Positions 6 to 220 of a DNA stretch of 227 nt are shown here, piece by piece. Source of the stretch: Escherichia coli. GTDB taxonomy: Bacteria; Pseudomonadota; Gammaproteobacteria; Enterobacterales; Enterobacteriaceae. The stretch is from NCBI RefSeq assembly GCF_003334335.1, contig NZ_QOWQ01000234.1; one strand, written 5' to 3'. Each line of letters begins with the position of its first letter. Position 1 is the stretch's first letter. Both the position numbers and the translations under genes were made by a program. Below the pieces are notes generated by a model that was given only the letters and a program-made list of their open reading frames with translations, was not told the DNA's origin and ran no database searches.

Positions 6-34
6 GCCTGATGCGCTACGCTTATCAGGCCTAC
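6..34 (+). repeat. REP / palindromic unit, Z2-like, copy 1
   Basis: gcctgatgcgctacgcttatcaggcctac. Imperfect palindrome with arms 6-16 and 20-30 (9 Watson-Crick pairs, one G-T, one mismatch) and a 3' CTAC tetranucleotide, matching the REP consensus pattern GCC(G/T)GATGCG...CTTATC(C/A)GGCCTAC. Confidence 0.85.
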
Positions 35-51
35 AGATTCTTGCGCCATTC

Positions 52-85
52 GTAGGCCGGATAAGGCGTTCACGCCGCATCCGGC
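52..85 (-). repeat. REP / palindromic unit, Y-like, copy 1, inverted relative to the Z2-like unit
   Basis: Reverse complement of 52-85 is gccggatgcggcgtgaacgccttatccggcctac, which matches the classic E. coli REP consensus as I recall it. Arms gccggatgcggcg and cgccttatccggc flank a tgaa loop; GTAG lies at 52-55 on the + strand. Confidence 0.88.
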
Positions 86-98
86 AATGGTGACAAAT

Positions 99-127
99 GC
101 CTGATGCGCTACGCTTATCAGGCCTAC
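99..127 (+). repeat. REP / palindromic unit, Z2-like, copy 2
   Basis: Identical to 6-34, offset by 93 bp. Confidence 0.85.
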
Positions 128-144
128 AGATTCTTGCGCCATTC

Positions 145-178
145 GTAGGCCGGATAAGGCGTTCACGCCGCATCCGGC
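145..178 (-). repeat. REP / palindromic unit, Y-like, copy 2
   Basis: Identical to 52-85, offset by 93 bp. Confidence 0.88.
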
Positions 179-191
179 AATGGTGACAAAT

Positions 192-220
192 GCCTGATGC
201 GCTACGCTTATCAGGCCTAC
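192..220 (+). repeat. REP / palindromic unit, Z2-like, copy 3 (unit truncated by the window end after 227)
   Basis: Identical to 6-34, offset by 186 bp; followed by the first 7 nt of the 17-bp linker. Confidence 0.85.

Follow-up and report, generated by a model that had tools for sequence, protein, structure and literature searches.

A BIME-2 array in the yahG-yahI spacer of Escherichia coli and the pairing between its neighbouring REPs

The array, its parts and its annotation

The window analysed here, the whole stretch of 227 nt, matches the yahG-yahI spacer of E. coli N921 at 100%, where the array to which it belongs comprises 4.9 units; in the same spacer of K-12 the array has 3.9 units. 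The array sits inside the E. coli gene row yahDEFG-yahIJ, and the genes that flank it in K-12 all point the same way, along the minus strand of the window, so that a read-through transcript corresponds to the reverse complement of the window. A repeat search finds in the window a 93-bp unit repeated exactly, head to tail, 2.4 times; within it the order of parts is a Z2 REP, an S linker, an inverted Y REP and an l linker. REP orientation alternates, with CTAC at 31-34 and GTAG at 52-55, and the tail-to-tail linkers of 17 nt and head-to-head linkers of 12 nt are homologous to those of REP325. The REP at 6-34 we take to be of the Z2 rather than the Z1 type, after the Bachellier/Gilson consensus, and the linkers presumably merit the labels S and l, which come from secondary sources.

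6-34, plus strand: Z2-type REP, copy 1 (palindrome 6-30, CTAC tail 31-34)
35-51: S linker, copy 1, the tail-to-tail spacer of 17 nt, in which 44-50 pairs with 86-92
52-86, plus strand: Y-type REP, copy 1, in 'REP' orientation (5' GTAG 52-55, palindrome 56-85)
87-98: l-type linker, the head-to-head spacer of 12 nt (other copies 1-5 and 180-191), whose partner in the minimum free energy (MFE) structure is the S linker
99-127, plus strand: Z2-type REP, copy 2, exact repeat of 6-34
128-144: S linker, copy 2, exact repeat
145-179, plus strand: Y-type REP, copy 2, exact repeat
192-220, plus strand: Z2-type REP, copy 3, exact repeat of 6-34

Both REP types form a local hairpin that is present in the MFE structure. 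That of the Z2 REP consists of 6-13/23-30 plus 15-16/20-21, and that of the Y REP of 56-62/79-85 plus 65-68/73-76, with a bulge of A63,A64/G77,C78. The Z REP is the shorter of the two and carries T-A rather than G-C at stem position 4. Within the Y REP, 52-83 agrees at 30 of 32 positions with GTAGGACGGATAAGGCGTTTACGCCGCATCCG, the y REP oligonucleotide of the crystal structure with the E. coli REP transposase.

The window is part of a BIME-2 array, an element that is already known and whose textbook anatomy it displays. BIME-2 elements (bacterial interspersed mosaic elements of type 2), known from Gilson, Bachellier and Hofnung, consist of z2 and y REPs joined by a short S linker, in tandem copies whose number varies between strains (Ton-Hoang et al. 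2012, PMC3333891, where the S linker of BIME-2 is also defined). The yahG-yahI array shares with them the alternating orientation of Y and Z2, the presence of a tail and a head linker, the near-identical tandem units, the extragenic location and the variable unit number (4.9 in N921, 3.9 in K-12, 2.4 in the window); it differs in nothing essential, although complementarity between its S and l linkers is unusually strong. Related REP sequence is present in 8-46 copies per genome in all 5426 genomes searched.

A coding sequence is annotated over the array in both K-12 and N921 (YahH or 'hypothetical protein'), and two minus-strand frames are open across the whole window. The location is nonetheless extragenic, between yahG and yahI, and the overlapping yahH coding sequence is a translated repeat: its product repeats every 31 residues as a translation of the REP units, in a frame that stays open only because the period of 93 equals 31 codons. 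The correct annotation is a BIME-2 or REPIN cluster, not a yahH gene.

The Rfam naRNA4 family (RF02564), whose model was built on the REP325 array and whose consensus is two local hairpins, matches the plus strand at 55-124 and 148-217 with 78 bits, against a gathering threshold of 59.5. The Y REP at 52-86 supplies the first hairpin of the match, and the Z2 REP at 6-34 aligns to the second. REP325 is itself a tandem array of Y and Z REPs, homologous to that of yahG-yahI and with S and l linkers akin to those described here, for which Qian et al. 2015 (PMC4550694) use the label l; it differs in locus, lying between yjdM and yjdN rather than between yahG and yahI. In K-12 and N921 the matches that exceed the threshold fall on the strand antisense to the flanking operon; the sense strand scores 53.9, below 59.5. 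Given the different locus and the antisense strand, the match was rejected as a small-RNA gene and ascribed to REP homology.

Inter-REP complementarity and predicted folding

Two neighbouring REPs of the array can pair with each other as well as with themselves. The sequence-only reading held that 21-34 is complementary to 52-65 save for one A27/G59 mismatch, that the 17-nt linker forms the loop, and that the same pairing holds in 99-178. All of this is borne out: base by base there are 13 Watson-Crick pairs, from C21-G65 to C34-G52, besides the A27/G59 mismatch (13/14, above chance in shuffles), and the arms recur at 114-127/145-158 in an exact repeat. Its description of the Z2-like and Y-like units as inverted relatives likewise agrees with the repeats and with the base-by-base pairing. 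The inverted repeats are the following.

21-65: inverted repeat between two REPs, tail to tail; its arms are 21-34 and 52-65 (complementary at 13 of 14 positions), its spacer 35-51
114-158: second copy of the tail-to-tail inverted repeat, arms 114-127 and 145-158
76-108: head-to-head inverted repeat across the l linker, arms 76-91/93-108, outer arms 52-65/114-127; second copy at 169-201

Outside the arms of the tail-to-tail repeat, 5-15 can pair with 76-86 at 10 of 11 positions, T9/C82 being mismatched, and the full long hairpin alternative spans 5-86. The reverse complement of 21-34, with at most one mismatch, occurs five times, versus none in 200 dinucleotide shuffles; an arm of at least 14 nt with at most one mismatch and a loop of 3-30 nt arises in 2 of 1000 shuffles of one unit. 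The second copy at 114-127/145-158 is trivial, because the window consists of exact 93-bp repeats, and the complementarity itself exists because neighbouring REPs are inverted copies of one sequence family of ~35 nt. Since any sequence pairs perfectly with its own inverted copy, an inter-REP helix has as many mismatches as its two REPs have differences. Selection seems not to act on the inter-REP complementarity as such.

Two further pairings, on which the sequence-only reading was silent, can be noted. The arms have a second pairing register, formed over the short linker (76-91/93-108 together with 52-65/114-127), and the linkers that flank the Y REP pair mutually (44-50 with 86-92).

For one unit with its linkers, two local hairpins constitute the predicted MFE structure on both strands and for RNA and DNA alike, with the Y hairpin lengthened by linker pairing (44-50/86-92 and, beyond it, 41-43/94-96). 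The corresponding energies are these.

RNA, plus strand, unit 1-93 or 1-98: local hairpins (MFE) -40.8 to -42.6 kcal/mol; forced inter-REP long hairpin -37.8 kcal/mol
RNA, mRNA sense, one unit: local -39.8 kcal/mol; inter-REP -38.4 kcal/mol
DNA parameters, one unit: local -22.9 to -25.1 kcal/mol; inter-REP -22.1 to -22.5 kcal/mol

The inter-REP fold of one unit thus lies +1 to +4 kcal/mol above the local fold, and its pair probability is 0.2-15% with RNA and 3-36% with DNA parameters. When the fragment 6-85 exactly is folded, the inter-REP structure becomes the RNA MFE (-35.4 kcal/mol). The long helix of the Z2/Y doublet contains two mismatches and a 5x10 internal loop. In this comparison, which the sequence-only reading had itself proposed as a check on the inter-REP stem, local folds alone are not strongly favoured, and equilibrium folding as modelled does not clearly favour local hairpins. 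The suggestion that inter-REP pairing competes with the local stem-loops holds in part: it is predicted to compete within one unit, at the cost of +1 to +4 kcal/mol, and to be the weakest pairing scheme once the unit is set in its array.

The local preference of the yahG-yahI unit depends on its S/l linker pairing, which is strong, with 10 pairs. Among 87 other natural Z-S-Y units, all from metagenomes, the inter-REP core is predicted to dominate in 76-84%, at a median probability of 0.95-0.99, and the yahG-yahI unit falls with REP325-like families in the low tail of inter-REP probability. One unit of the N921 array has C-G at 49/87, a compensated change; a C/A in another unit is uncompensated. 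As a general feature of BIME-2 that would impose local folding, S/l pairing was tried and rejected: the energy of the S/l duplex is -4.38 versus -4.23 kcal/mol for permuted partners (p = 0.13), and the S-l pairs that enclose Y in arrays number 4.23 versus 4.37 (p = 0.69).

In the array, folding resolves into three mutually exclusive schemes, of which the local scheme ranks first, head-to-head Y-l-Z2 pairing second and tail-to-tail pairing last. These schemes are nearly isoenergetic in the model, with tail-to-tail pairing the weakest: its occupancy in contexts of 134 nt and 227 nt is 1e-5 to 1e-2 of the ensemble, and that of head-to-head pairing in the 227-nt window is 1.5-28%. The MFE structure of the whole window includes distant REP-REP pairs, and the MFE of the growing K-12 transcript flips every few nucleotides among local, adjacent and distant REP-REP pairing. 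With the landscape so degenerate, kinetics must decide the outcome. The direct refolding barrier out of the local fold, computed with findpath, is 15-22 kcal/mol, and in the mRNA orientation the extended l'-Y-S' hairpin is complete before its partner REP has been transcribed.

Variation in natural REP pairs

A scan of the genome collection with the pattern GGCCTAC N{10,25} GTAGGCC was unspecific, mostly unrelated genomes being among the matches listed, yet Citrobacter werkmanii accounted for at least 46 loci among them and so offered an unbiased sample of tail-to-tail pairs. From these, 28 independent C. werkmanii tail-to-tail pairs with recognisable local stems were taken, together with the five units of L001, and at each stem position four bases were compared, those of the 5' and 3' halves of both REPs.

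Stem position 4 occurs in three alleles among the matches listed, G-C (Y), T-A (Z) and C-G (a third type). At this position, for the 28 pairs among the matches listed plus L001, local pairing is Watson-Crick in 62 of 66 cells, versus 17 of 66 for inter-REP pairing. Twenty quartets in the 28 Citrobacter pairs among the matches listed keep both local pairs and lose Watson-Crick pairing at both inter-REP pairs; 17 of them are at position 4 and three at position 6, where one inter-REP pair becomes a G-T wobble. The reverse pattern, with inter-REP pairing kept and local pairing broken, was found nowhere at stem positions 1-7 of the 28 Citrobacter pairs among the matches listed, and compensatory upkeep of the long hairpin was not seen in this enterobacterial sample of 28 pairs. 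Variation thus preserves local pairs and not inter-REP pairs, a result that speaks for conservation of the master copy rather than for selection in situ, as it comes from a sister species in which REPs have spread by copying.

The two mismatches of the yahG-yahI long helix, A27/G59 and T9/C82, are the locally compensated difference between Y and Z, and since this difference is compensated inside each REP, it brings mismatches into any Y-Z helix. Bases that differ between REP types and yet keep complementarity were depicted earlier (PMC3333891, Fig. 1). Positions 8-10, the conserved REP bulge, behave otherwise, being mismatched locally and Watson-Crick between REPs; the match between REPs is trivial, because they are inverted copies. 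Covariation at positions 9-10 was considered as structural evidence and set aside, for it tracks species-specific REP families (GATGCG vs GATGGC), whose arms co-vary by descent because they are homologous copies.

Transposase, transcript and supercoiling

REP sequences are substrates of a REP transposase, TnpA-REP, documented for E. coli MG1655 (PMC3333891; PMC3479197). The enzyme binds the local y hairpin, whose single-stranded 5' GTAG lies splayed over the protein surface, and its contact with the mismatched bulge is critical (PMC3479197); binding or cleavage is lost with a corrected bulge or an altered GTAG (PMC3479197; PMC3333891). In the inter-REP helix of the yahG-yahI unit, GTAG at 52-55 is paired with CTAC at 31-34, and A63/A64 with T23/T22. 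With GTAG and the bulge both paired, the inter-REP fold would mask both determinants.

The idea of a hairpin between two inverted REPs is already published as the REPIN, an inverted REP doublet with a spacer that is predicted to form a hairpin in single-stranded DNA or mRNA, reported for E. coli K-12 and described in tandem clusters (Bertels and Rainey 2011, PMC3116915). The Z2-S-Y doublet has that arrangement of two inverted REPs with a short spacer, and it might be argued that the long hairpin is the functional structure, copied by a RAYT transposase from single-stranded DNA at the replication fork or from an excised intermediate, with the array a REPIN cluster. Such an argument can draw on the long hairpin predicted at equilibrium for most natural Z-S-Y units, on its share of 3-36% for one unit with DNA parameters, and on the action of TnpA-REP on BIMEs rather than single REPs (PMC3333891). 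It sits poorly, however, with an enzyme that requires a free GTAG and an unpaired bulge (PMC3479197), both paired in the long hairpin. The doublets are moreover mostly heterotypic, as at yahG-yahI where Z2 faces Y, which places two mismatches in the long helix, and the variable positions are compensated locally. In Pseudomonas REPINs the long hairpin carries compensatory changes (PMC3116915), whereas the enterobacterial pairs examined do not show them. For the yahG-yahI unit, whose long hairpin is predicted to be sub-optimal and whose inter-REP probability lies in the low tail, a functional long hairpin is unlikely.

Three other interpretations fare less well still. The degeneracy of folding might itself be functional, with many near-equal local, adjacent and distant folds tuning Rho access or exonuclease action stepwise; the switching MFE of the K-12 transcript and the distant pairs in the whole-window MFE are in keeping with this, as are the reproducible ladder of REP325 transcripts and the lack of full-length array RNA as a major product (bioRxiv 10.64898/2026.03.23.713779). 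These are equilibrium predictions only where folding is concerned, however; co-transcriptional folding should trap local hairpins behind the barrier of 15-22 kcal/mol, and local hairpins acting singly explain the ladder equally well, which makes functional degeneracy a rather improbable account. Another proposal starts from the linkers: their complementarity (41-50 with 86-96), acquired in arrays like those of yahG-yahI and REP325, might lock Y into the extended local hairpin and suppress the REPIN-type long hairpin, rendering such arrays structurally 'disarmed', domesticated by the host and biased to the form of an exonuclease barrier or attenuator. This is speculative and decidedly improbable. 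That the region codes for protein, finally, with the repeats as coding repeats, has next to nothing to recommend it: the annotated coding sequences and the two open minus-strand frames speak in its favour, but the frame is kept open only by the 31-codon period, the product is periodic, unit number varies between strains, and the DNA is canonical REP sequence found in every one of the 5426 genomes.

The reading preferred here, to which a probability of roughly 0.7 may be assigned, is that of a BIME-2 array in the yahG-yahI spacer in which inter-REP pairing is an automatic by-product and the local REP hairpins are the units that matter. REP325 offers the closest guide: it stabilises upstream mRNA (Harris et al. 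2026, bioRxiv 10.64898/2026.03.23.713779) and attenuates the downstream gene ~8-10-fold, partly via Rho, and its transcripts end after ~2, 3 or 4 hairpins, that is, in steps of one hairpin (same source). REPs as mRNA stabilisers and BIMEs as attenuators are described by Newbury 1987, Khemici and Carpousis 2004 and Espeli 2001, as cited in PMC6061677. The yahG-yahI array resembles these elements in that its intercistronic spacer holds stem-loops that are stable, rich in GC and not followed by a U tract, and no intrinsic terminator (a GC-rich stem-loop plus U tract) was found in L242 6600-7300. By analogy, the array most plausibly acts like REP325 within its gene row. In the transcript, which is the window's minus strand, each local hairpin would form upon synthesis, and the hairpins jointly would hinder 3' exonucleases and, assisted by Rho, partly attenuate transcription from the upstream into the downstream genes. 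When the DNA is single-stranded, the REP transposase would act on the local Y hairpin, whose 5' GTAG is free and whose bulge is unpaired. As an alternative conformer of nearly equal energy, the inter-REP helix would be far rarer in the array and kinetically disfavoured. The analysis shows the anatomy, the locus, the energies and the pattern of variation; the fold in vivo we infer, and the functions are carried over from REP325, malE-malF and similar elements. The local REP hairpins are most likely the relevant units, and inter-REP pairing is probably not the fold that matters at yahG-yahI.

The significance of the locus beyond its correct annotation is slight, and the inter-REP idea repeats the REPIN concept. 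What the present analysis adds is the existence of three exclusive, near-isoenergetic pairing schemes in the model, the local compensation of the Y/Z difference, and the expectation that an inter-REP fold would hide the determinants of the transposase. Were such a fold to occur in vivo, there would be consequences for the mobilisation of REPINs and for the attenuation of transcription by REP arrays. The sequence-only reading had further supposed that the inter-REP stem might block 3'-5' exonucleases, pause ribosomes or polymerase, or be relevant to gyrase binding; the documented functions of this kind (exonuclease block, attenuation, gyrase) are ascribed to local hairpins or to duplex sequence, and the suggestion finds no footing there.

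It had also supposed that the inter-REP repeat could extrude as a cruciform under negative supercoiling. The cost of extrusion was estimated from nearest-neighbour hairpin energies of both strands, less the duplex energy and with the relief of superhelical stress added, a rough calculation that omits a junction term.

Local Z2 cruciform: cost 20.3 kcal/mol, net +1.9 at sigma -0.06
Local Y cruciform: cost 25.3 kcal/mol, net +3.2 at sigma -0.06
Head-to-head repeat cruciform: cost 27.9 kcal/mol, net +3.6 at sigma -0.06
Inter-REP cruciform, inner arms: cost 40.2 kcal/mol, net +7.0 at sigma -0.06
Inter-REP cruciform, full repeat: cost 80.0 kcal/mol, net +19.5 at sigma -0.06

At sigma -0.03 all five are far more unfavourable. 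For the tail-to-tail repeat with its 17-bp spacer, extrusion at 40-80 kcal/mol is unaffordable at physiological supercoiling in this rough model, compared with 20-25 kcal/mol for the local cruciforms, and the supposition of an inter-REP cruciform is not supported; the model makes such a structure implausible. In a fuller version of the proposal, extrusion of the Z2-S-Y inverted repeat would yield a large cruciform to which gyrase or HU is drawn. This version could appeal to BIME-2 elements as strong, transcription-independent gyrase sites (PMC6379681) and to cruciforms of the REP325 palindromes, for which bridging by HU and naRNA4 was proposed (PMC4550694). It is very hard to sustain nevertheless, being net unfavourable even at sigma -0.06, at 40.2-80.0 kcal/mol against 20.3 (Z2) and 25.3 (Y). 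The published cruciform models concern local palindromes (PMC4550694), and a re-examination in 2026 found no stable ternary complex of HU, cruciform DNA and naRNA4, no effect of REP325 on the nucleoid and no REP-REP contacts (bioRxiv 10.64898/2026.03.23.713779).

Relevance to gyrase is documented for REP and BIME elements and ascribed to local hairpins or duplex sequence rather than to an inter-REP stem. Gyrase cleaves chiefly y REPs, at the loops and non-complementary regions of their stems, that is, at local loops and bulges, and binding with cleavage is reported for a subset of BIME-2 elements, the yahG-yahI locus not being among those named (PMC6379681). BIME-2 elements also match the duplex gyrase motif with high scores (PMC6379681), which may account for preferential binding without extrusion.

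Head-to-head pairing and the Y hairpin

The sequence-only reading had proposed that the Z2 and Y REPs can pair tail to tail across the S linker, with window positions 21-34 complementary to 52-65 apart from one mismatch. Secondary-structure prediction indicates that head-to-head pairing of Y and Z2 across the l linker (Y-l-Z2, window 76-108 and 52-127) competes better than this arrangement, and the minimum free energy structure of fragment 52-127 is the head-to-head inter-REP fold on both strands. Head-to-head Y-l-Z2 pairing is also the phase of naRNA4. As a cruciform, the head-to-head repeat is estimated to cost about as much as the local palindromes.

The S and l linkers that flank the Y REP are themselves mutually complementary, in both copies:

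Window 41-50 with 86-96: C44-G92, G45-T91, C46-G90, C47-G89, A48-T88, T49-A87 and T50-A86, plus 41-43/94-96
Window 134-143 with 179-189: equivalent complementarity in the second copy

With this pairing the Y hairpin continues past a bulge of 5 nt (CGTAG), and in the folding models the added stem shifts the balance of the unit in favour of local folding. The N921 array carries a compensated C-G at 49/87 in one unit and an uncompensated C/A in another. In a sample of 31 units from arrays and 73 single ones, S/l-type pairing is not commoner than with permuted linkers.

The yahG-yahI array

The array consists of 4.9 units in N921 (L001, 2320-2772) versus 3.9 in K-12 (L242, 6757-7116), and the units of one array are distinguished by a small number of changes in the linkers and a single one in the Y loop. 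These differences in copy number and sequence fit the gain and loss of whole units that has been described for BIMEs. The annotations and model matches over the array are as follows:

L242 6812-7067, minus strand: naRNA4 matches above threshold, antisense to the operon
L001 2369-2717, plus strand: naRNA4 matches above threshold, antisense to the operon
L242 6770-7090: annotated yahH CDS
L001 2346-2735: annotated 'hypothetical protein' CDS
Frames 1 and 2 of the window's minus strand: open throughout

Each unit of this unrelated array reaches a score above the gathering threshold of the Rfam naRNA4 model (RF02564), and does so antisense to the operon; thus the model in effect detects Y-linker-Z REP doublets generally. 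The yahH or 'hypothetical protein' product is a periodic translation of the REP array with a 31-residue period, its frame being open only because the repeat period of 93 equals 31 codons, and the annotated gene is almost certainly spurious.

Between the yahG stop codon and the base of the first REP stem downstream of it there are 13 nt (L242 6742-6758; L001 2771-2787). For REPs at most 15 nt from a stop codon, stalling of ribosomes at termination and reduced expression of the gene upstream have been reported (Liang, Rudd and Deutscher 2015, as cited in PMC12306157), and the yahG spacing falls within this range.

REP-like elements in other genomes

Among the matches listed are several non-enterobacterial MAGs in which near-identical inverted-repeat elements are dispersed:

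L016-L027: Kiritimatiellae MAG SLGY01
L009-L012: Verrucomicrobiales MAG JAQGOU01
L065-L066 and L036-L037: further MAG elements

These elements have GGCCTAC-spacer-GTAGGCC at their centre and additional complementary sequence on either side. From their sequences they look like REPIN-type families that have the GTAG/CTAC tail in common with enterobacterial REPs.

The Citrobacter werkmanii loci among the matches listed (L076-L121) include a third REP type beyond Y and Z:

GCCCGAT...ATCGGGC: C-G at stem position 4

Tail-to-tail pairs at these loci are both heterotypic and homotypic (Y-Y), and their spacers are highly variable, at 10-22 nt.
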